From Fusobacteriota bacterium (GTDB lineage: Bacteria; Fusobacteriota; Fusobacteriia; Fusobacteriales; JBNJFI01): 37,715 bases of DNA. Below are positions 7,391 to 33,457 of this stretch, in pieces; position 1 is the first letter of the stretch, and the number at the start of each line of letters is the position of its first letter. A program made the translations under genes and the position numbers. The notes beneath the pieces were generated by a model, which saw only the letters and a list, made by a program, of their open reading frames with translations, was not told the DNA's origin and did no database searches. The stretch lies in contig JBNJFI010000009.1 of NCBI GenBank assembly GCA_051746725.1, forward strand, positions 1-37,715, given 5' to 3'.

Positions 7391-8353
7391 TTATCGTTTC
7401 AAATAATCAGAAACTGTAAGAGCTGCTTTTACTCCCTCAGAAGCAGATATTAATATTTGCTTATATGGTACATTTGTAACATCACCTACGGCAAATATAC
7501 CCTTTTTTGATGTTTCATTCTTACAGTTAATTATTATTTCGTTTTTTTCATTTAACTCTAATAGATCTTTTACAAAAAAGGAATTAGGTTTGTATCCTAT
7601 TTCTATAAAAGCTGCCTTTACTTCAAAAGTAGATTTATCATGATTTTTTCTATTTTCAATAACTACTTTTTCTAAATTATCATCACCTTCTAATCTTAAA
7701 ACTTTAGAATCTGTATATATTTTTATGTTATCCAATGATTTTAATTTATCAACTAAAATCTTATCTGCATTTAATTCACTGGTCCATTCTATCAATCTTA
7801 CCGAATTTGTATATTTAGAAAGATCTATTGCAGCTTCTACTGCAGAATTACCTCCTCCTATTACACAAACATCCTCTTTTTTATATAAAGGACCATCACA
7901 TATGGCACAGTACGTAGCTCCTTTTCCATAAAATTTATCCTCTCCTGGTATGCCTAGTTTTTTATTATGAGTTCCTGTGCTTATAATAACACTCCTAGAT
8001 TTAATTACCTCTCCATTCTCTAATTCTGATCCCTTGATTTCATTATATTTGATATTATTAACTTTTACATCTTCTAGAAAAGGAATATCATATGATTTAA
8101 GATGCTTTTCAAATTGACCTACTAATTCTTCTCCCATTATAGATTCAAACCCCAGATAATTTTCTATTACTCCAGAATCCAAAACTTTTCCTCCTAAATT
8201 CTTAGTCACTAAAATAACATCTAAACCTTTTCGTTTTGAATATATAGCAGAAGCAAAAGCTCCTGGTCCACCACCTATTATAATGACATCGTAAATTTTT
8301 TCATAATCAAAATTTTCTTTCTCCTCTGTATCTAGATCGAAATTAAACTCCAT
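7391..8353 (-). CDS. trxB: Thioredoxin-disulfide reductase (TrxB-like; FAD/NAD(P)-binding, CxxC redox centre). Start re-assigned to the internal ATG.
   Basis: Contains 'YDVIIIGGGPGAFASAIY' (FAD GxGxxG), 'CAICDG' redox motif and 'VCVIGGGNSAVEAA' (NADPH site). The ORF track starts at 8395, but the perfect SD 'aaaggaggag' sits 5 nt before the ATG at 8353 ('MEFNFDLD...'). Confidence 0.85.
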   Translation of the reverse strand: MEFNFDLDTEEKENFDYEKIYDVIIIGGGPGAFASAIYSKRKGLDVILVTKNLGGKVLDSGVIENYLGFESIMGEELVGQFEKHLKSYDIPFLEDVKVNNIKYNEIKGSELENGEVIKSRSVIISTGTHNKKLGIPGEDKFYGKGATYCAICDGPLYKKEDVCVIGGGNSAVEAAIDLSKYTNSVRLIEWTSELNADKILVDKLKSLDNIKIYTDSKVLRLEGDDNLEKVVIENRKNHDKSTFEVKAAFIEIGYKPNSFFVKDLLELNEKNEIIINCKNETSKKGIFAVGDVTNVPYKQILISASEGVKAALTVSDYLKR

Positions 8354-8485
8354 TTCTCCTCCTTTATTGCTTCCTTTTTCTTCTTTATCCCCCATCCTAT
8401 TCTTATATTCGAATTATTTTCATTTTTCCTTTAAATTTATACAAGTTATTTATTTAATTTTTTAATCAATTATAATGTATATCCA

Positions 8486-10123
8486 TTATTTACAAAATAA
8501 AGGGATTCTTACTTTGAAAGTAGTCCCTGTACCTTCTTTGGTAGTAAAATCAATATTTCCTCCTATAGCTTCAACTAGTTCCTTTACTATCTTCAAGGAT
8601 ATTCCTGTTCCAGCATATACCTTTGTCATATGATGTTCTCCTTGATAAAATGCTTCAAAGGCTCTTTTAGCTACCTCTTCTTTCATTCCTATACCTGTAT
8701 CAGAAACTATTATTGTAATATAATTATTATTACTTTCTTCTATTTTCACTAATATCTCTCCGTCTGGAGTGAATTTTAAAGCATTTTCCATTAAAAAATA
8801 GATTATATGAACTATTTTAAGTTGATCCCCTGTGTAAACCTTATTATTAACGGCTTTATCTATAGACATTTTCACCTTGGCGTTACTTTTTTGTATAGGA
8901 ATCTTAAGTAAATCTCTTACATCTTTGATTAATTCACTAAATTTAAACTTGCTTTCTCTAATAGAATAATCTTCATTGGCAAGATTATTATGTAATAATA
9001 ATTTTTCTATTAAATCTTCAAGTCTATATGTAGAATCTTTTAATATTGATACCAACTTTTCATTTTCTTTTTCAAAATCACTTGGTAAAAGGTCAATCCC
9101 TCCAATAAGACCTGTAAGTGGAGTTCTTAACTCATGGGACATATTACTTAAAAAATCCTCCTTTATTCTCAAAGCTATTTCAGATTTTTTCATCTCTTCT
9201 TCCAGTTCTTCCATTATTTGATTTTTTTTCTGAATTAATTCGATATTTTCAAAATTTACCTTTATAATATAAATAAAAATTCCAAATAAATAATTTTCTA
9301 TAAGATTAAATCCTCTATCTTTTTTTACGTAACAACAAATTTTATCTCCATTGGATATTTCAAAAAAAGAACATTTAATGAGATTTTCACTCTTTTCTTT
9401 TTCCAAAATTTCCTTTTTAGGTATTTGAATCATTTCGCCAGATTTTGATTTTAAATCTCCTAAACCCGATAATAATCTATAACCATTACTTGATTTCGTA
9501 GCTATATACCCTTCTAAATCGTCTTCAGATCTGTCCCCAAAAATTCTTAATAGATTTTCCATTACTCTATCAGAAAACGACCTTAAATTTTCCTTAGCAT
9601 ATACATCAGTTGTACTTTTAATTATCTTTTCTAGCCCTTTTTTGCTCTGTTCCATGACATCGAGATCTCTATATGCCCTCAAAGCAGAAATTGTAGTAGT
9701 TATTAGTCGTTGAGAAGTTAACTCAGTTTTGTTTTTATAATCATTTATGTCATAATCTCTAATAACTCTTTCCTCAGGCGCTTGTCCTGGCTGACCTGTT
9801 CTCAAAATAATTCGAGTTTTATTATTGTGTAGTTTTTCTCTAACGTATTTAACCACTTCTAAGCCACTATCTTCGCTTTCCATTACGACATCCAAAAATA
9901 AAATTGCTATATCTCTCATACTTTCAATAACTTTTTTGGTTTCCTCTCCAGAATAGCAATTTATAATTTTTATCTTTCTTCCTTCGAGATCTTTATTGTT
10001 TAATATTAATTTTGTAATTTTATGGACATCTTCATTGTCATCTGCTACTAATATTTTCCATTCATTTTCACTTGTTTTTTTTAACTTTTTTTTATTTTTA
10101 TGAAATAACATCTTACTTCCCAT
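8486..10123 (-). CDS. Hybrid two-component protein: N-terminal receiver (REC) domain, central uncharacterised region, C-terminal HisKA + HATPase_c histidine kinase.
   Basis: REC: 'KILVADDNEDVHK...ILFLDVVME' carrying the phospho-Asp. HisKA H-box 'SHELRTPLTGLIGGIDLL'. ATPase G-boxes 'VSDTGIGM' and 'GTGISLKIVKELVEAIGG'. The track start is GTG 10132; the ATG at 10123 has SD 'aggaggtg' 7 nt upstream. Confidence 0.85.
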   Translation of the reverse strand: MGSKMLFHKNKKKLKKTSENEWKILVADDNEDVHKITKLILNNKDLEGRKIKIINCYSGEETKKVIESMRDIAILFLDVVMESEDSGLEVVKYVREKLHNNKTRIILRTGQPGQAPEERVIRDYDINDYKNKTELTSQRLITTTISALRAYRDLDVMEQSKKGLEKIIKSTTDVYAKENLRSFSDRVMENLLRIFGDRSEDDLEGYIATKSSNGYRLLSGLGDLKSKSGEMIQIPKKEILEKEKSENLIKCSFFEISNGDKICCYVKKDRGFNLIENYLFGIFIYIIKVNFENIELIQKKNQIMEELEEEMKKSEIALRIKEDFLSNMSHELRTPLTGLIGGIDLLPSDFEKENEKLVSILKDSTYRLEDLIEKLLLHNNLANEDYSIRESKFKFSELIKDVRDLLKIPIQKSNAKVKMSIDKAVNNKVYTGDQLKIVHIIYFLMENALKFTPDGEILVKIEESNNNYITIIVSDTGIGMKEEVAKRAFEAFYQGEHHMTKVYAGTGISLKIVKELVEAIGGNIDFTTKEGTGTTFKVRIPLFCK

Positions 10124-10204
10124 AAAAATCACCTCCTGATCTATTAACCTAATTAAGTATACTATATATTTTTTTAAATATCAAAAGAAATTACCCAAAA
10201 AAAA

Positions 10205-10231
10205 GAAAGGCTTTTAGCCTCTCTTTTTTTT
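10205..10231 (-). terminator. Intrinsic terminator (A-run, hairpin, T-run) downstream of the MIF-like gene.
   Basis: 'aaaaaaaagaaaggcttttagcctctctttttttt' with stem 'aggct'/'agcct' extended by a few pairs. The flanking A8 and T8 runs make it bidirectional. Confidence 0.55.
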
Positions 10232-10256
10232 GCTTTTAATATTATTTTATTTTAAG

Positions 10257-10616
10257 TTAAGTTCTGCTAGCAAATGTTTTACCATTAAATCCCCAGTCTT
10301 GACGCTCCATCTCAAAAAAGGTTATATAAATCTTATTTGAATCTACATTTAATATTTCATTATATAGCTTTCCAATTCTATTAGTCAAAATATCTTTTTG
10401 TTCTATATTAAGTTTTCCTAATAATTTAATCTCTACATAAGATACCGTATCTAATTTGCCTCCTAAATATATTCTTTTCTCATCTTCAATATTGATCATT
10501 AAAGCTCTTTCAGGTTTTCCGATCTCTTCTTCCATTATCTTTGCAAAACCATGTTTAAGATCTATTTCTTCAGTCTTCGTAACTGCTTTTCCTATCTTAG
10601 TTTCTATAAATGGCAT
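10257..10616 (-). CDS. MIF (macrophage migration inhibitory factor)-family tautomerase homologue with N-terminal Pro1.
   Basis: From the ATG at 10616 the protein begins 'MPFIETKIG...' (Pro right after Met, the tautomerase-superfamily catalytic residue). It is ~118 aa and ends '...IYITFFEMERQDWGFNGKTFA', which parallels the MIF C-terminus '...[20 protein letters not shown]'. SD 'aaaggtga' lies 5 nt upstream. The track start at 10625 is GTG. Confidence 0.6.
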   Translation of the reverse strand: MPFIETKIGKAVTKTEEIDLKHGFAKIMEEEIGKPERALMINIEDEKRIYLGGKLDTVSYVEIKLLGKLNIEQKDILTNRIGKLYNEILNVDSNKIYITFFEMERQDWGFNGKTFASRT

Positions 10617-10632
10617 CAAAATCACCTTTTCC

Positions 10633-11277
10633 TTATTTGATTTTTTCTATTTCTTCTAAAAATTTCTGAATAGGTTGATCTCCTGTGAATTCGTACTCGT
10701 CATTTATTACTATTTTAGGTACACCTCTTACATTAAATTTTTTTGAAAGCTCCTGAAATGTTTGAGCTTCAATCATCTCTCCTGAAATGTGGTCGTTTAA
10801 CATCGCTAATTTATGAGCTTTAGAAACTGCTCCTGGACAATGCGGACATGATAATGTTACAAAAACTTTTATATCTACATCCTTATCTATCGCTTTTATT
10901 TTTTTAGTTATTTCCTCTGGCAGATCATGACCAGAACCTGAAACTTCTAATATTCCATTTACAAAAGAATTAATCTCATGTCCAGCTGGTATTCCATAAT
11001 ATTTTACTCCATTATTTTTCTTATTAGAATCTAAAATTACTATTGCTGGAGCTTTATCAACTTTAAGATCCTCTGCCATTTTTTTATCTTTTTCTATATC
11101 ATATATTTCTAAATTAATTTTTTCAGATAAATCCTGTATCTCATTCATAAAACCTTTGGTATCCTCACATATTTCACATCCATCTTCTTTTAAAAATAAA
11201 ACTAAATTCACCTCATCTTTTAATTTTGAAAATACTTCTTTTAGTTGACCACTTACTTCTTCATTTAATAAACTCAT
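10633..11277 (-). CDS. Protein disulfide oxidoreductase / glutaredoxin-like protein with two thioredoxin-fold units (CxxC x2).
   Basis: Two CXXC motifs ('CEIC' near the N-terminus and 'CPHCP' in the second half) at the spacing typical of archaeal/Thermotogae PDO-type proteins. The RBS is 'aggagg'. Confidence 0.75.
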   Translation of the reverse strand: MSLLNEEVSGQLKEVFSKLKDEVNLVLFLKEDGCEICEDTKGFMNEIQDLSEKINLEIYDIEKDKKMAEDLKVDKAPAIVILDSNKKNNGVKYYGIPAGHEINSFVNGILEVSGSGHDLPEEITKKIKAIDKDVDIKVFVTLSCPHCPGAVSKAHKLAMLNDHISGEMIEAQTFQELSKKFNVRGVPKIVINDEYEFTGDQPIQKFLEEIEKIK

Positions 11278-14505: not shown

Positions 14506-15560
14506 TTATCTTCGTTCTACAGCTATTTTTGCTAATTGTTTTATTAATTGTGACATCAAACTTTGAAATTCTTTATAACTTTCTTCCAAAGACATTTCCG
14601 ATAAATCTTTTCCTTCTACTTTTTCACCTTTTATTGCAGAAAGTAAATTTATTCCATCTTCATAATCTTTTACTATTTCATCTTTTGATCTTTCTATTTC
14701 TACTTCTTGCTTTGCCCCTTCTGAACCTATTGCTTTAATTACTTCAGATATTACCTTTTGAAATTCTTTATAACTTTCTTCCAAAGACATTTCCGATAAA
14801 TCTTTTACTTTTACTTTTTCATTTTTTATTGCAGAAAGAACATTTGATGCATCTTTATAATCTCTTATAATCTCTTCTTTTGATTTTTCTATAGCTATTT
14901 CCCTTTCAGCACCTGCTAATCCTAATTCTTGAACTAACATTGATATTATGTTCTGGAACTCTCTATAGCTTTCTTCCAAGGACATTTCCGATAAATCTTT
15001 TTCTTCTACTTTTTCACCTTTTATTGAAGAAAGTAAATTTATTCCATCTTTATAATCATTTATAATTTCTTCCTTTGATCTTTGAATCTTTAACTCTTGT
15101 TCAGCTCCAGCTTTACCTAAAGCTTCTATTAATTGTGAAATTACATTTTGAAATTCCTTATAAGCTTTTTCTGTTGTCATTTCATCCAATTTTTTCGCTT
15201 CTTTTTTCTCTCCTGTTAGTAAAGATAAAAGTTTTATACCATCTTCATAATCCTTTATGATATCAAGCTTTAATGATAATCCTTCAGTTTCTTGAACTCT
15301 TGTATTTAAAGCTCTAGATAAATGACCCATTATTTTTTCCATTACATTTTGAAATTCCTCATAAGCTGCAGCTGGCGTCATCTTTGTTAAGTCTTTCTTT
15401 TTAATCTCTTTTTCTTCTATTATTGATAACATTTCTAGTGCATTTTCATAATCTTCATTGATTTTGTTAATTGGTTTTTCAAATCCTTGTTTATACAATT
15501 CTTGTCTGATTTGATTATTTGTAGCCTTTAGAGTATCATAAAGTTCCTCTTCTGACATTG
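14506..15560. repeat. ~195-bp tandem DNA repeats (about 5 diverged copies) inside the lipoprotein CDS.
   Basis: The near-identical segment 'ctttataactttcttccaaagacatttccgataaatctttt' recurs at about 14573, 14766 and 14961. The period equals 65 codons. Confidence 0.7.
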
Positions 15561-15786
15561 TACTTACATCTTTGGACTTAACTTCCTCCCCTGTTAATGT
15601 TGCTAATATTTTTCTATTTAACTTATAATCTTTCTTTAAAGTCTCTGACAATTGACTCTCTACTTTCTCCTCTTTTACAGCTTTAGATTCCATAGCCTTA
15701 GATTCTTCCGTCTCACTAGTAGTACACCCTCCAATTAGCAACAATGAAGACAATAAAACACCAAGCATAAAATTTCTCTTTCTCAT
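14506..15786 (-). CDS. Lipoprotein made of about five and a half tandem copies of a ~65-aa helical repeat. Function unknown.
   Basis: Signal peptide plus lipobox 'LLLIGGCTTS'. The repeat unit is roughly 'KDLSEMSLEESYKEFQxxISxLxxxLGxAGAxxExxIExSKEEIIxDYKDGINLLSxIKGEKV'. The RBS is 'gggagggg'. Confidence 0.7.
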   Translation of the reverse strand: MRKRNFMLGVLLSSLLLIGGCTTSETEESKAMESKAVKEEKVESQLSETLKKDYKLNRKILATLTGEEVKSKDVSTMSEEELYDTLKATNNQIRQELYKQGFEKPINKINEDYENALEMLSIIEEKEIKKKDLTKMTPAAAYEEFQNVMEKIMGHLSRALNTRVQETEGLSLKLDIIKDYEDGIKLLSLLTGEKKEAKKLDEMTTEKAYKEFQNVISQLIEALGKAGAEQELKIQRSKEEIINDYKDGINLLSSIKGEKVEEKDLSEMSLEESYREFQNIISMLVQELGLAGAEREIAIEKSKEEIIRDYKDASNVLSAIKNEKVKVKDLSEMSLEESYKEFQKVISEVIKAIGSEGAKQEVEIERSKDEIVKDYEDGINLLSAIKGEKVEGKDLSEMSLEESYKEFQSLMSQLIKQLAKIAVERR

Positions 15787-15926: not shown

Positions 15927-17726
15927 TTAGTTATCTAATTTTAATATTGACAAAAAAGCTTCTTGTGGAATATCTACGCTTCCTATATTTTTCATTCTTT
16001 TCTTTCCTTCTTTTTGCTTTTCAAGTAGTTTCTTTTTACGAGTAATGTCTCCACCGTAACATTTTGACAACACATCTTTTCTCAAAGCTTTTATTGTAGA
16101 TCTAGCAATTACCTTACTTCCAATTGCTGCTTGTAAAGGAATTTTAAATTGCTTTTTTGGTATTACATTTTTTAATTTTTCAACAACTGCTTTTCCTCTA
16201 TTATATGCAGAATCTCGATGTATAATAAATGAAAATGCATCTACAACTTCTTTATTTACTAGAATATTTACTTTCGTTAAATCAGATTTTCTATAATCCA
16301 AAGTCTCATATTCAAAAGAAGCATATCCTCTAGTTTTTGACTTTAATTTATCATAAAAATCTACTATTATTTCTGCTAAAGGAAGCTCATATTTTATCAT
16401 AACTCTATCTTCATCAAGATATTTCATATCTTTAAATTCCCCTCGTTTTTCCTGGCAAAGTTCCATAACATTACCAACGAACTCTTCAGGGATCATTACA
16501 GTTCCTTCTATATAAGGTTCTTCAACATAATCTATTTGACCATCTGGATATTCTATAGGGCTATCTATTTCTAATACTTCTCCATCACTTTTAGCTACTC
16601 TGTATATTACACTTGGGCTAGTAGAAATAAGATCAATTCCATATTCACGCCTTAATCTTTCAACTATTATCTCCATATGCAAAAGGCCCAAAAATCCAGC
16701 TCTAAATCCAAATCCTAAAACAGAAGAACTTTCTGGTTCAAAATATAAAGAAGCATCATTTAATTGTAACTTTTCTATTGCATCTCTAAGATCTTCATAA
16801 TCATCTGTTGATATAGGGTAAATCCCTGCATATACCATTGGCTGACTTTCTTGATACCCTGATAAAGGTTCAGTCGCCCTATTATATGCTAGAGTGATGG
16901 TATCTCCAATTTTTGTATCCGCTATATTTTTTATTCCTGAGATAATATAACCAACATCTCCGGCTTTAAGTGAACCTGTTTCTTTTCTAGTAGGAGAAAA
17001 AATCCCTACTTCTAAAACTTCAAATTTTTGCTTAGTTGACATTATCTCTATTTGATCCCCTTTTTTGACTTGACCTTCCATTACTCTTGTATATGTAATT
17101 ACACCTCTATAATCATCAAAATGTGAATCAAATATTAAAGATCTCAAAGGTTTATCAATTTCAAACTTTGGTGCTGGAATACGTTTTACTATTGCCTCTA
17201 ATAAGTCTTGGGTTCCTTCTCCTGTCTTTCCACTGGTAAGAACTGCATCCGATGCATCTATTCCAACAACTTCTTCTATCTCCTTTTTCACTTTTTCAAT
17301 GTTGGCATTGGGAAGATCTATTTTATTTATTACTGGAATTATCTCTAAATCATGTTCTAAAGCTAAATAAACATTTGCCAATGTCTGAGCCTCAACACCT
17401 TGAGTTGCATCTACTATTAATAAGCATCCCTCACAAGCTGTCAAGCTTCTCGAAACTTCATAAATAAAATCAACATGGCCAGGTGTATCTATCATATTTA
17501 ATTTATATTTCTGATTATCTTTGGCATCATAAAAACATGTAACGGCCTGTGATTTTATAGTGATTCCTTTTTCTCTTTCCAAATCCATACTATCTAATAA
17601 TTGTTCTTTCATATCTCTTTTCGTTATTGTTCCTGTATATTCTAACATTCTATCTGCCAAAGTCGATTTTCCATGATCAATATGAGCAATAATAGAAAAA
17701 TTTCGAATATTTTCTGCTTTTTTCAA
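15927..17726 (-). CDS. lepA: Translation elongation factor 4 (LepA).
   Basis: '[18 protein letters not shown]' G1 motif, 'DTPGHVDF' G3 and the LepA-specific C-terminal domain. ~599 aa. The start is TTG at 17726 with 'aggagg' upstream. Confidence 0.95.
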
Positions 17727-17742: not shown

Positions 17743-19524
17743 TTATATCATTTCCTCTTCTTTTTCAACAACTCCAGTTAAATCATTGAAGTTGAAATCC
17801 ATTGCTAATATAGCTACAAATTCATCTTTTTCATTGGTTACAGGAGTAGATGCTGTAAAGCATAATTTCCCAGTTGTTTCTGATATGTAATAATCTGTAA
17901 CATGTGTTTTTCCATCTGATAAAACTTGTGAAAACCAAGGTCTATCTGTTCTGTCATCACCTTTTTTGGAAATATTATCAGATTTTTTCTTTAATTCTTT
18001 TTGAGATATATTCTCTGTTATCTGAATACCTTCTGCATCTGTCATATAAACCATTTGTATATATTTATTTTCTTCTATAACATTGCTTAATACCGAACAT
18101 ATTTTTTCATAATCCATACTCTTTATTTCAGGTAATTCAGCATACTCTTTGATAAGTTCTTTTACTTTTTGAGTTGTCTTTTCTCCAATTTTTTCAAACT
18201 CTGTTTTAAATAATTCTGGCATATGTTTTCTTGTTAACTCATACATTTCATCGTTTGAGATTGCAGTAGTTCTACCATTATCATATTGTTCATCAATCCA
18301 TCTATATATTTTAGTTATTTTTGGATGCTTTTTACTTATTTTTTCTTTAGGATTTAAGTTTGCATTTATCCAATGTGTTATCCCGGCAACACCTGACTTA
18401 TCAGTTATACTAACTTTAAGCGGTCTATCTAATATAGTAGTTGTATCAAAAATATTATATATTTCCTCATTTTTTATTGCACCATCTGCATGAATCCCTG
18501 CTCTAGTTACATTAAAATCCTCTCCAATAAAAGGATATCGTCTAGAAATTGCAATTCCCATTTCATTTTGCATAAATCTAGCTATATCTGTGATTACTTT
18601 AGTATTAATAGTTTCATCATGACCTTTAAGAGACATGTAATCCATAATCAAACCTTCTATAGGTGGGTTTCCTGTTCTTTCTCCTATTCCCACTAAAGTT
18701 CCGTTAACTGCTGCTGCTCCATACATCCAAGCAGCTGTTCCGTTAACTAAAACTTTATGAAAATCATTATGCCCATGCCATTCAATTAATCTAGAAGGCA
18801 CACCTAATTCAGATTTTAAAATTTGGATCATTTTAGGAACAGATCTCGGAATTTCAACAGATGGAAACGGAACTCCATATCCCATTGTATCACAAAGTCT
18901 AATCTTAACATCAACACCAGATTTCTTTGAAATTTCCATTAGACCTTCTACAAATGGAATAACCACTCCTCTAAAGTCTGCTCTAGTAATATCTTCTAAG
19001 TGACATCTTGCAACTATCCCTTCACTTACAACAGTTCTAACAACATCTAGATATTTATTAATTATTGTTTTTCTATCACTTTTTAATTTTTTATAAATAT
19101 GGTAGTCTGATACAGATGTTAATATTCCCGTTTCTTTTAATTCTAAGTCTTTAACAAGTTCAAAATCTTTTTTGCTAGCTCTCATCCAACTTGTTATTTC
19201 AGGAAATTTTAAACCTAAATTTTTACAGCTTTCCACTGCTCTTCTATCTCTATCACTATATAGAAAAAATTCAGTCTGTCTTATCAACCCCTTTTTTCCA
19301 CCTAATTCATTTAGATATTTATATAATTTTACAATATGGTCCTCTTTAAAAGGAGCCATTGATTGTTGTCCATCTCTAAAAGTTGTATCTGTTATCCAAA
19401 TATCCTCTGGCATATCTGGAGTTATTATTTTATTTTCCATTTTTATTTTTGGCACTTCTTTATAACTAAATGTATCTCTAAGTAAATTTGGCTTTTCTAA
19501 GTTTATCAATCTGTTATTTTTCAT
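17743..19524 (-). CDS. Fusion protein: N-terminal DRE-TIM metallolyase domain (LeuA/homocitrate-synthase/HMGL-like) plus C-terminal Cache-like (PAS-fold) ligand-binding domain.
   Basis: N-terminus: 'TDTTFRDGQQS' (cf. LeuA 'DTTLRDGEQS') and 'HGHNDFHKVLVNGTAAWMYGAAAVNGTLVGIGERTGNPPIEGL' (cf. LeuA 'HCHND...GIGERAGN'). C-terminus: 'DRPWFSQVLSDGKTHVTDYYISETTGKLCFTASTPV...DEFVAILAMDFNFNDL', the classic Cache/sCache signature (RPWY...DPY.D..TG.LVIT.S.PV...G.LGVDI.L..L). No TM segments. Confidence 0.65.
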   Translation of the reverse strand: MKNNRLINLEKPNLLRDTFSYKEVPKIKMENKIITPDMPEDIWITDTTFRDGQQSMAPFKEDHIVKLYKYLNELGGKKGLIRQTEFFLYSDRDRRAVESCKNLGLKFPEITSWMRASKKDFELVKDLELKETGILTSVSDYHIYKKLKSDRKTIINKYLDVVRTVVSEGIVARCHLEDITRADFRGVVIPFVEGLMEISKKSGVDVKIRLCDTMGYGVPFPSVEIPRSVPKMIQILKSELGVPSRLIEWHGHNDFHKVLVNGTAAWMYGAAAVNGTLVGIGERTGNPPIEGLIMDYMSLKGHDETINTKVITDIARFMQNEMGIAISRRYPFIGEDFNVTRAGIHADGAIKNEEIYNIFDTTTILDRPLKVSITDKSGVAGITHWINANLNPKEKISKKHPKITKIYRWIDEQYDNGRTTAISNDEMYELTRKHMPELFKTEFEKIGEKTTQKVKELIKEYAELPEIKSMDYEKICSVLSNVIEENKYIQMVYMTDAEGIQITENISQKELKKKSDNISKKGDDRTDRPWFSQVLSDGKTHVTDYYISETTGKLCFTASTPVTNEKDEFVAILAMDFNFNDLTGVVEKEEEMI

Positions 19525-19550
19525 TTATATCACCTCTTTTTATTTAGTAT

Positions 19551-19579
19551 ATTATATCAATAAATTCAATAATTGTCAA
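19551..19579 (-). promoter_or_regulatory. Consensus sigma70 promoter for the DRE-TIM/Cache gene: TTGACA, 17-bp spacer, TATAAT.
   Basis: The rc of 19551-19579 is 'ttgaca attattgaatttattga tataat'. It lies about 25 nt upstream of the ATG at 19524. Confidence 0.5.
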
Positions 19580-19634: not shown

Positions 19635-19672
19635 TATAAAAAATCTTCCTATTATTTTAGGAAGATTTTCAT
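19635..19672 (-). terminator. Intrinsic terminator downstream of phnA.
   Basis: 'aaaaaatcttcctattattttaggaagatttt' with a 10-bp stem 'aatcttccta'/'taggaagatt', flanked by A- and T-runs. Confidence 0.6.
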
Positions 19673-27168: not shown

Positions 27169-27495
27169 TTACACTTGACAACTAATCTCTTCTTCTAAAT
27201 TCTCAAGATCCTCTTTTAACTTCTTCTCTTTTTTGAATTCAGATATTAGTTTTTCCAAAAAAGGGTGTTTTCTTAATAATTCGTTATTTATAGAGTAATA
27301 AACCCATTGTGCAGATTTTCTAGATTTAATCAATTTAGATCGTTTTAATTTCCCTAAATGTCTAGAAGCATTAGATTGAGTTAAGTCTAAAATTTCTCGA
27401 ATATTACATACACATAATTCTTTTTTTTGAAGAATATTTAATATTCTAATTCGATTTTCGTCGGCAACTGACTTAAGTATATCAGTTAATTCCAT
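27169..27495 (-). CDS. arsR: ArsR-family metalloregulator with the canonical 'ELCVCNI' metal(loid)-binding motif.
   Basis: 'KKELCVCNIREILDLTQSNASRHLGKLKRSKLI' is the alpha3 CVC site followed by the HTH. The RBS is 'aaggaga'. Confidence 0.85.
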   Translation of the reverse strand: MELTDILKSVADENRIRILNILQKKELCVCNIREILDLTQSNASRHLGKLKRSKLIKSRKSAQWVYYSINNELLRKHPFLEKLISEFKKEKKLKEDLENLEEEISCQV

Positions 27496-32458: not shown

Positions 32459-32935
32459 ATGATATATGGAGTTACTTTTTTATTATTAATCATTTTATTT
32501 TTTAAGGATAAAGAAAAAACTATAAAGGGCTTTAAATTAGGAATAAAAAAACTTTTTAAACAATTACCTGTATTTTTTAATATGATGGCTTTAGTTGCTA
32601 TTTCTTTATATTTTATATCAGATGATTTAATAATAAGATTTCTAGGAGAAGATAGTGGTAATATCGGTATGGCTTTAGGTGCTGGCTTTGGATCAGTAGC
32701 TATTATGCCTGGTTTTATAGCTTTTCCTCTGGCAGGTTTGCTACTTGAAAAAGGAATCTCTTACATGGTTTTGGCGAGTTTTACAAATACTCTTATGATG
32801 GTTGGAGTAGCTAGTTTTCCTGTTGAAAAAGAGTATTTTGGAGTAAAGGTGTCCATCATTAGGAATATTATTGGTTTTATTATGGCTATAGTAGTTGCGT
32901 TAATAATAGGTTTATTATATGGGGAGTTGATTTAA
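32459..32935 (+). CDS. Predicted permease, N-terminal half of a split COG0701/DUF318-type 'two-component membrane permease'.
   Basis: Four or five TM helices and a Gly-rich 'GMALGAGFGSVAIMPGFIAFPLAGLLL'. The stop TAA (32933-32935) is directly abutted by the TTG start of the next ORF. Confidence 0.65.
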   Translation: MIYGVTFLLLIILFFKDKEKTIKGFKLGIKKLFKQLPVFFNMMALVAISLYFISDDLIIRFLGEDSGNIGMALGAGFGSVAIMPGFIAFPLAGLLLEKGISYMVLASFTNTLMMVGVASFPVEKEYFGVKVSIIRNIIGFIMAIVVALIIGLLYGELI

Positions 32936-33457
32936 TTGAAAGAAAAATTACAAAAATTATTGATCCCAATATTATTTTTTGGGGGAATTATAATAAGTTC
33001 AATAATAGGTTTTGCACCTGGAAAGGGAATTGGAATTAATTTTGTTAAATTTTTTAAAAGTATGATCTCATTTTTACCAGCAGTTTTTATAATGATTGGA
33101 TTATTTGAGGTTTTTGTAGATAAAAAAACTATCGAAAAACATCTAGGAGAAGATTCAAAATTCCATGCTTATCTTTGGGCTATATTATTATCAGGAACTA
33201 CTGTTGGAGGTTTATTTGTAGCTTTTCCTGTGGCTCATTCTCTTTACAAAAAAGGGGCTAAAATAAGTATCATTTTTACATATATCGGTGCAGCCGCTGT
33301 TGCGCGTGTTCCCATGACACTTTTTGAAGCTTCTTATGTGGGGTTAAAGTTTACAATTATAAGGTTATCAGTCTCACTTCCATTTATAATAATAAGTAGT
33401 ATCTTGTTGGAAAAATATCTCAAAAATTCAAATTTTAAAATCAAAAAAGTTGCTTAA
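32936..33457 (+). CDS. Predicted permease, C-terminal half of the split COG0701/DUF318-type permease. TTG start, translationally coupled.
   Basis: TM-rich, 'LWAILLSGTTVGGLFVAFPVAHSLYKKGAKISIIFTYIGAAAVARVPMTLFEA'. It starts immediately after the upstream stop. Confidence 0.65.
   Translation: MKEKLQKLLIPILFFGGIIISSIIGFAPGKGIGINFVKFFKSMISFLPAVFIMIGLFEVFVDKKTIEKHLGEDSKFHAYLWAILLSGTTVGGLFVAFPVAHSLYKKGAKISIIFTYIGAAAVARVPMTLFEASYVGLKFTIIRLSVSLPFIIISSILLEKYLKNSNFKIKKVA

Follow-up and report, generated by a model that had tools for sequence, protein, structure and literature searches.

A single gene in a Fusobacteriota MAG joins a catalytic barrel of the isopropylmalate synthase superfamily to a C-terminal domain that resembles the Cache sensors. 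The locus raises the questions of which reaction this protein catalyses, what a sensor-like module may do on a metabolic enzyme and whether the two parts truly belong together. We analysed one contig of the MAG, a stretch of 37,715 nucleotides that we refer to as the window. Sequence comparison leads us to regard the gene as a probable Re-face-specific citrate synthase (Re-CS; EC 2.3.3.3, KEGG K05942) of the C. kluyveri/S. aciditrophicus type, equipped with a putative ligand-sensing, allosteric Cache module.

The gene and its similarity to Re-citrate synthases

The candidate gene (17743..19524, minus strand), recognised from the open reading frame listing and by homology, is a complete coding sequence for 593 aa plus stop; its 593 codons run without interruption from an ATG start, and the stop codon lies within these coordinates. 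A first-pass annotation of this DNA had proposed that the gene has its own consensus promoter, and this proposal was borne out. A sigma-70-type promoter-like site (19551..19579, minus strand, read from 19579 to 19551) consists of TTGACA and TATAAT separated by 17 nt, with a TG extended -10 element; it matches the consensus at 12 of 12 positions and ranked top in a 6-kb scan. The ribosome-binding site GAGGTG (19531..19536, minus strand) can be read 6 nt 5' of the ATG, and a terminator-like hairpin at the end of the upstream yjdM/phnA-like gene (19639..19670, minus strand; a 13-bp stem followed by a T-run) marks the 5' limit of the transcription unit. Downstream, lepA (EF4; 15927..17726, minus strand; Pfam GTP_EFTU and LepA_C) has a GGAGG site of its own and begins 16 nt past the stop codon, and the two genes are probably co-transcribed. 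The same gene order is kept in L003, the closest relative on a long contig, whose protein is 68% identical.

All of the motifs quoted in the first-pass annotation are present in the 593-aa reading frame: the catalytic motifs TDTTFRDGQQS (residues 45-55), HGHND (250-254) and GIGERTGN (279-286) and the Cache-like stretch DRPWF...TDYYISETTGKLCFTASTPV...DEFVAILAMDFNFNDL (residues 527-582). The catalytic DRE-TIM (HMGL-like) barrel spans residues 43-317 (18574..19398, minus strand; Pfam HMGL-like, E = 1.8e-30), and in the predicted structure it shows alternating strands and helices with pLDDT values above 90. Its metal and substrate motifs, TDTTFRDGQQ (45-54) and EWHGHND (248-254), are invariant in 57 homologues, as are R50, D51, H250, H252, E282, R283 and N286; the DRE-TIM catalytic and metal-binding residues are therefore present. 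The barrel is followed by a helical subdomain or linker with GIHADG and YNIF motifs (residues 318-441; 18202..18573, minus strand), which is common to the LeuA/HCS-family enzymes and the Cache-less enzyme of C. kluyveri. Its invariant columns in the 57 homologues lie between residues 331 and 426, and NCBIfam LeuA/HCS alignments reach approximately residue 420-454.

The protein is 49% identical to S. aciditrophicus SYN_02536 across residues 8-593, Cache module included (E = 0), and 50% identical to C. kluyveri CKL_0973 across residues 12-442, where the alignment stops (E = 2e-147); both reference sequences were machine-read from the PDF of Table S1 of PMC12016533 and contain small errors. SYN_02536 is a characterised Re-citrate synthase (Kim et al. 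2013, as referred to in PMC12016533). It falls in the same length class as our protein and has the same barrel, helical subdomain and C-terminal Cache-like module, with DRxWF...TD(F/Y)YIS..TG.LCFT...D motifs in both; it differs in coming from the Thermodesulfobacteriota and in having an N-terminus longer by about 20 aa and a C-terminal tail of about 20 aa. CKL_0973 is similar in its catalytic module and helical subdomain, but this clostridial enzyme stops right after the subdomain and lacks a Cache module. It is reportedly a characterised Re-citrate synthase, active without such a module, in work attributed to Li et al. 2007. We also considered the Dehalococcoides/Heliomicrobium type of Re-CS as the closest type and rejected it, as the Dehalococcoides-type enzyme is only 27% identical to the 593-aa protein.

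Re-citrate synthases form citrate from oxaloacetate and acetyl-CoA with Re-face stereochemistry, depend on Mn2+ or Co2+ and are sensitive to O2; such an enzyme is usually the sole citrate synthase of its genome, with no Si-type gltA. The citrate that anaerobes make in this way enters the oxidative branch of a split TCA cycle, which leads to 2-oxoglutarate and glutamate. The DRE-TIM barrel of the present protein would, by homology, condense acetyl-CoA and oxaloacetate to citrate in the same manner.

The C-terminal Cache module and its putative pocket

Residues 442-593 (17746..18201, minus strand) constitute a single cytoplasmic Cache/PDC module, made up of a helix at 442-462, a helix at 472-485 and then a PAS-like sheet with helices. 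The Cache-like character ascribed to this region by the first-pass annotation is confirmed by a Pfam match to MCP-like_PDC_1 over residues 477-583 (40.8 bits, cutoff 27). A further match, to dCache_1 over residues 471-586, is slightly under its cutoff (43.3 bits versus 45) and covers model positions 57-159 of 240, i.e., the distal half only, and YkuI_C gives a weak match in the C-terminal region. The predicted structure contains a long N-terminal helix and then a PAS-like alpha/beta module, as is typical of Cache domains, and structural matches also back this fold.

Cache domains are viewed mainly as extracellular sensors of signal-transduction proteins. In 78% of members of the superfamily, the domain is extracytoplasmic and lies between two TM helices (PMC4822843). 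The Re-CS module departs from this placement: the protein has no TM segment, as had been remarked from the outset (maximum Kyte-Doolittle 19-residue mean, 1.05), and its N-terminus is hydrophilic and has no signal peptide. A membrane or periplasmic location was therefore rejected, and we regard the module as an intracellular member like YkuI_C. The B. subtilis protein YkuI (YkuI_C, PDB 2bas/2w27), which was found as a structural match, likewise has an intracellular Cache-like module C-terminal to an effector domain. The same arrangement occurs in chemoreceptors with a C-terminal Cache-like module, and these are the nearest sequence relatives of our module (85 of 109; the Pfam scan covered those 109 of 150 representatives whose length exceeds 200 aa). 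However, the partner domains in YkuI and the chemoreceptors are signalling outputs (EAL and MCPsignal), whereas here the partner is an enzyme of central metabolism.

The amino-acid motif of dCache_1 domains is formed by Y121, R126, W128, Y144 and D173 of PctA (PMC8915833). A profile-to-PDB alignment places four of these five residues in the Re-CS module, namely R528, W530, Y546 and D576. The segment R528-P-W530-F531 (17932..17943, minus strand) aligns with R126/W128/Y129 of PctA, the carboxylate-binding part of the motif, while Y546 (17887..17889, minus strand) aligns with Y144, a contact of the ligand amino group, and D576 (17797..17799, minus strand) with D173, an essential contact of that group. 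Conservation of these positions in the 57 homologues is almost complete: R528 is found in 56, W530 and D576 in all 57, F or Y at position 531 in all 57, and position 546 is Y in 51 and F in 6. The carboxylate-binding Arg, which is lost in amine sensors, is thus retained. The fifth residue is not: the equivalent of Y121, five residues before R528, is Asp here, and 45 of the 57 homologues have an acidic residue (Asp or Glu). Judged from the alignment, an acidic residue at this position could disfavour a carboxylate ligand.

Comparison with the dCache_1AA sensors (PctA, Tlp3, Mlp24/37 and CtaA; PMC8915833) shows likeness in the fold of their membrane-distal module and in the equivalents of R126, W128, Y129 (as F), Y144 and D173. 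However, theirs is a double, periplasmic and TM-flanked domain with a signalling output, whereas that of Re-CS is single by both Pfam and predicted structure, cytoplasmic and attached to an enzyme, with Asp/Glu in place of Y121. Because there is only a single module, we do not file the protein as a member of dCache_1AA, and we treat the motif likeness as a lead only.

Possible functions of the module

LeuA and CimA have a C-terminal amino-acid-binding feedback domain (for Leu and Ile, respectively). These enzymes belong to the same superfamily and have the same layout of barrel, helical subdomains and C-terminal small-molecule-binding regulatory domain; they differ in that their regulatory domain is of unrelated fold, their catalytic part is distant and their substrate is another. 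The long form of Re-CS carries, by way of a long helix, a single cytoplasmic Cache/PDC module in the place of that feedback domain. Such a module may bind a small metabolite of the cytoplasm that has a carboxylate and, probably, an amino group; the branch ends in glutamate, which would be an obvious candidate. Ligand binding might then tune catalysis allosterically, much as Leu and Ile exert feedback on LeuA and CimA, so that the module may be an allosteric sensor of a small molecule, possibly of an amino acid such as glutamate. We tentatively suggest, as one possibility, that it gates the entry of acetyl-CoA to the oxidative TCA branch by sensing an intracellular amino acid, e.g., glutamate, through the R/W/Y/D pocket, and that the same cassette is found in chemoreceptors with a C-terminal Cache, a class that is large and uncharacterised.

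Two other functions have to be weighed. The module could sense something other than an amino acid, namely a carboxylate from the TCA cycle or the keto acids (pyruvate, oxaloacetate, 2-oxoglutarate or citrate, for example). We consider this doubtful, as amino-acid and amine sensors bind the amino group of their ligand with an Asp that corresponds in the alignment to the invariant Asp576, whereas KinD, which binds pyruvate, has Ala there. An unlikely reading gives the module a role in structure or oligomerisation, e.g., as a dimer-forming helix with a PAS-like cap, with neither ligand nor regulatory function. Dimerisation is often mediated by PAS and Cache domains, the module opens with the long helix 442-462 and is without a known ligand, and Cache-less enzymes exist, all of which would fit such a role. 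However, the near-invariant positions are precisely those that contact the ligand in PctA-type sensors, while the remainder of the module has diverged to 28-59% identity; the chemoreceptor-linked relatives, in which a sensing role is expected, retain the same residues.

The module, in our preferred reading an amino-acid sensor, is an accessory part that is not needed for catalysis, because both characterised and natural Cache-less forms exist. Regulation by the module is not obligatory: the Cache-less forms are scattered in the tree, and the Re-CS of C. kluyveri is reportedly active although it has no such module. A conserved intracellular Cache domain on a central metabolic enzyme, with a putative amino-acid-type pocket that is largely intact, provides a testable hypothesis on how flux to 2-oxoglutarate and glutamate may be controlled in anaerobes, and it may also help to find the ligand of the cytoplasmic chemoreceptor modules, which form a large family. 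If the module is indeed an amino-acid sensor of Re-CS, this would be the first demonstrated Cache regulatory domain of a central-metabolism enzyme and a functional replacement for the feedback domain of LeuA and CimA.

Substrate, genomic context and distribution of the fusion

The first-pass annotation had described the protein as LeuA/HMGL-type with the LeuA_dimer domain missing. The HMGL-like barrel and the missing domain both stand, since Pfam gave no match to LeuA_dimer (PF08502) in the protein even at E <= 10, but the protein is not a variant of LeuA, given its 49-50% identity to Re-CS. We consider it very improbable that the enzyme has another Claisen-condensation specificity (i.e., for homocitrate, citramalate, isopropylmalate or another 2-oxoacid) rather than that of a citrate synthase. 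Membership of the same superfamily, with LeuA, HCS and CimA as top PDB and NCBIfam matches, would be consistent with such a specificity, as would the two-subunit LeuC/HacA-type hydratase that replaces classical aconitase as the neighbour at some loci and the lack of TCA genes in the window. However, the curated NCBIfam models score 3- to 10-fold under their cutoffs for LeuA (TIGR00973, 103.8 bits versus 598.7; NF002086, 128.3 versus 532), for NifV and LysS homocitrate synthases (TIGR02660, 145.1 versus 462.9; TIGR02146, 128.4 versus 413.55) and for CimA citramalate synthase (TIGR00977, 77.6 versus 450), and these three enzymes were rejected on this basis and on the lack of LeuA_dimer. Identity to the two characterised Re-citrate synthases contrasts with 20-30% to the other enzymes, and the neighbouring dehydrogenases pass the NADP-IDH equivalog cutoff but not those for LeuB or homoisocitrate dehydrogenase.

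Genes for homologues often adjoin those for NADP-isocitrate dehydrogenase (IDH), aconitase, malate dehydrogenase (MDH) or fumarase, and neighbours score high enough to reach the equivalog cutoffs of the NADP-IDH and aconitase models. Downstream genes encode aconitase and IDH at L005, IDH, MDH and fumarase at L006 and IDH at L001/L002, and in 15 of 80 genome loci the adjacent genes include an IDH-like one. A search of the 37.7-kb window, which is one contig of the MAG, for aconitase, IDH or other TCA genes was negative, and the TCA role in this Fusobacteriota MAG is therefore drawn from homology. Recognition of Re-CS changes reconstructions of the TCA cycle for many anaerobic lineages, of which this MAG is one.

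The fusion within a single gene had been pointed out at the start, and it is not an assembly artefact, because barrel and Cache module are encoded by one reading frame in 81 of 87 homologous loci and split between genes in none. A separate Cache-only reading frame was absent from all 87 loci, and both domains occur together in over 100 database proteins with lengths of 580-640 aa; together with the intact 593-codon frame, these results leave a negligible chance that two genes were joined by a frameshift or misassembly. A survey of phyletic distribution, as had been advised, found relatives encoded in at least 594 species genomes from many anaerobic phyla. Short forms lacking Cache are found sporadically in other phyla and are scattered through the tree of the catalytic domain. 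The long form of Re-CS with Cache is common, and the fusion is real: it is widespread and occurs in an enzyme that has already been characterised.

The proposal that the fusion represents a new allosteric architecture does not hold, as the S. aciditrophicus enzyme has the same layout. Because the architecture is already found in a characterised enzyme, our finding refines existing knowledge and does not define a new kind of system. The Cache module nevertheless seems to be an unstudied part of an otherwise known enzyme: a literature search, which did not extend to the primary papers Li 2007 and Kim 2013, returned nothing relevant on a Cache or C-terminal domain of Re-CS. Names in the databases vary, with several homologues labelled 'citrate (Re)-synthase' by JGI, many others deposited as 'histone-lysine N-methyltransferase' or 'isopropylmalate synthase' and the exact protein deposited as 'triose-phosphate isomerase'.

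Re-citrate synthase family and gene context

By sequence, the 593-aa product of the ORF at 17743..19524 (minus strand) is a predicted member of the Re-citrate synthases (Re-CS) of the C. kluyveri/S. aciditrophicus type, for which a KEGG entry (K05942) exists. An HMGL-like DRE-TIM domain covers residues 43 to 317 (Pfam, E 1.8e-30), and the NCBIfam isopropylmalate, homocitrate and citramalate synthase models are all below threshold for this protein (TIGR00973, 103.8 versus a cutoff of 598.7; TIGR02660, 145.1 versus 462.9). PDB sequence matches are limited to the barrel, the best being homocitrate synthase 6ktq (1.7e-24). Compared with reference Re-CS sequences machine-read, with small errors, from the PDF of Table S1 of PMC12016533, the protein shares approximately 49% identity over residues 8 to 593 with characterised S. 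aciditrophicus SYN_02536, a long form whose Cache module, like that of the window protein, is aligned throughout; approximately 50% over residues 12 to 442 with characterised C. kluyveri CKL_0973, which ends there and, unlike the window protein, lacks the module; and approximately 27% in the catalytic part with a Dehalococcoides-type Re-CS, in which the module is also absent.

Gene context in relatives supports this assignment. An IDH-like gene adjoins at 15 of 80 species-representative genome loci, and aconitase-family, MDH or fumarase genes are nearby at other loci among the 80. The gene is followed by IDH at two homologous loci (L001 and L002), by a 747-aa aconitase and IDH at a third (L005) and by IDH, malate dehydrogenase and both fumarase subunits at a fourth (L006). 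The neighbouring dehydrogenases pass the NADP-IDH equivalog cutoff (TIGR00183, 637 bits versus 567) and do not reach those for LeuB and homoisocitrate dehydrogenase; the L005 hydratase passes the aconitase cutoff. At four Syntrophorhabdus-like loci (L035, L042, L044 and L058; about 7770-10700 in each), the gene after Re-CS is not a classical aconitase; a two-subunit LeuC/HacA-type hydratase and then NADP-IDH follow, suggesting that a HacAB/LeuCD-like enzyme acts as aconitase in these genomes.

The protein is badly annotated in public records. NCBI names the exact window protein, in the Fusobacteriota MAG, 'triose-phosphate isomerase', and many homologues bear the name 'histone-lysine N-methyltransferase'; the two names seem to be mis-annotations of a Re-CS that were propagated.

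A Cache-like module and its distribution

Towards the window protein's C-terminus, Pfam matches MCP-like_PDC_1 at residues 477 to 583 (40.8 bits versus a cutoff of 27), the membrane-distal half only of dCache_1 at residues 471 to 586 (43.3 bits versus 45) and, weakly, YkuI_C. As the protein has neither a signal-like N-terminus nor a hydrophobic segment (the 19-residue Kyte-Doolittle mean peaks at 1.05), the Cache-like part is placed in the cytoplasm. AlphaFold gave a confident model of the full-length protein (pLDDT 89.5, pTM 0.71); residues 440 to 593 alone (pLDDT 91.7, pTM 0.87) fold into a long helix at the N-terminus, another helix and a PAS-like sheet, the Cache-type fold anticipated by the first-pass annotation. 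All factual elements of that annotation were borne out, namely the ORF, the HMGL and Cache-like domains in one protein, the lack of a TM segment, the absence of LeuA_dimer (no Pfam match even at E<=10) and a consensus promoter. Its interpretation stood only in part: the fusion is real, but the architecture is not new. Barrel and module share a single ORF in 81 of the window plus 86 loci, and characterised SYN_02536 has both.

A protein-collection search with the window protein gave 8000 candidates, all significant; the best 120 are all HMGL plus Cache proteins of 580 to 643 aa, from Nitrospirota, Thermodesulfobacteriota, Latescibacterota, Margulisiibacteriota and others, some bearing the JGI name 'citrate (Re)-synthase'. 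At least 594 relatives were confirmed among species-representative genomes, the best 80 coming from Syntrophales, Desulfobacterales, Desulfovibrio/Bilophila/Mailhella, Nitrospirota, Elusimicrobia, Omnitrophota, Lentisphaerae, Spirochaetales, Armatimonadota and Margulisbacteria. The Cache-bearing long form predominates, and one of its members is a characterised enzyme. Six of the window plus 86 loci lack the module, five ending directly past the helical subdomain as in C. kluyveri, and at none of the 87 is there a separate Cache ORF. In a rough neighbour-joining tree of the catalytic part, without support values, forms lacking the module fall at scattered places among those that have it, which suggests that the module is accessory and was repeatedly lost or gained. 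One Lentisphaeria homologue nested among Cache-bearing relatives (L076, 5911-7593) ends in a 93-aa tail in which no Cache match is detectable and which may be a degraded remnant of the module.

LeuA and CimA have a similar layout of barrel, subdomains and C-terminal effector-binding domain, but the fold of that domain differs. Searched exhaustively with HMMER, the module alone retrieved 424 cluster representatives, 99 of them at E<=1e-10; some are short forms, either stand-alone or fragmentary. Among the 109 with more than 200 aa, 85 have an MCPsignal domain, to which the module is C-terminal in those inspected, and HMGL enzymes are few. The module thus falls in a largely intracellular Cache subfamily that chemoreceptors also have. 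Predicted extracellular domains make up 78% of Cache domains, and only YkuI_C and Diacid_rec are mainly intracellular families (PMC4822843). As Cache partners in that study are signalling outputs, an enzyme partner is atypical for the superfamily, though common in the Re-CS family.

What the module may sense

In the receptor PctA, the dCache_1 amino-acid motif comprises three residues in contact with the carboxylate of the ligand (Y121, R126 and W128) and two in contact with its amino group (Y144 and D173); the D173A mutant no longer binds, and in R126A binding is 61-fold weaker (PMC8915833). We aligned the Re-CS module profile to PctA and scored conservation in 57 homologues. R126 corresponds to R528 (R in 56/57), W128 to W530 (W in all 57), Y129 to F531 (F in 54, Y in 3), Y144 to Y546 (Y in 51, F in 6) and D173 to D576 (D in all 57), while Y121 corresponds to D523 (Asp or Glu in 45/57). 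R/W/[YF]/D is retained in 89 of 100 chemoreceptor-linked relatives. Pyruvate-binding KinD, in contrast, has Ala at the Asp position, and in amine sensors the Asp is present and the Arg is lost. The pattern speaks for a module that would sense a ligand bearing a carboxylate and, probably, an amino group. In anaerobes, Re-CS supplies the pathway to 2-oxoglutarate and glutamate (PMC12016533, PMC8027424), which makes glutamate the natural candidate, with the acidic residue at the Y121 position as a caveat. The literature searched, which did not include the two primary enzyme papers, yielded no mention of a Cache module in Re-CS.

In a large class of chemoreceptors (representatives P0132, P0136, P0139, P0143, P0153, P0201 and P0258), a Cache-like module lies C-terminal to MCPsignal; its R, W, Y, S, T and D positions are nearly invariant and match the amino-acid-sensor pocket, a Trp stands three residues ahead of the Arg, and the Y121 position is Lys or Arg.

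The gene and its surroundings

The gene is intact (593 codons), with GAGGTG upstream of its ATG start and a perfect TTGACA-17-TATAAT promoter with a TG extension at 19579..19551 (minus strand), just downstream of the preceding yjdM/phnA-like gene, which ends in a terminator-like hairpin. lepA starts 16 nt past the stop codon, an order also present in the closest relative on a long contig. No TCA genes were found within the 37.7-kb window, which has 28% G+C and nearly all of its genes on the minus strand. GC skew across 1-37715 is strongly and uniformly negative on the plus strand (about -0.25 to -0.45), with short relaxations only around 21-22 kb and 32-33 kb, the regions of the few plus-strand genes; this is consistent with near-total gene co-orientation.

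A 426-aa lipoprotein-like ORF at 14506-15786 (minus strand; N-terminal lipobox LLLIGGC), with no informative Pfam match, is made of ~65-aa repeats ('KGEKVE.KDLSEMSLEESYKEFQ...'); within it, at 14562-15083, TRF reports 2.7 copies of a 195-nt unit (82% matches). Abutting ORFs at 32459-32935 and 32936-33457 (plus strand) each match the ArsP_1 permease model in the same, N-terminal half (13-134 and 16-139 of its 294 positions) and look like a tandem half-size pair rather than one frameshifted gene; an ArsR-family regulator gene lies at 27169-27495 (minus strand). Signalling genes are unusually many on this contig (5000-6658, 8486-10132, 27592-28545, 28595-31645, 31665-32129, 34107-37163 and 37241-37642, all minus strand), comprising an MCP, a hybrid histidine kinase with DUF3369, a multi-PAS hybrid kinase, a cNMP-binding protein, a stand-alone receiver and two GGDEF proteins, one with Reg_prop/Y_Y_Y sensor repeats.
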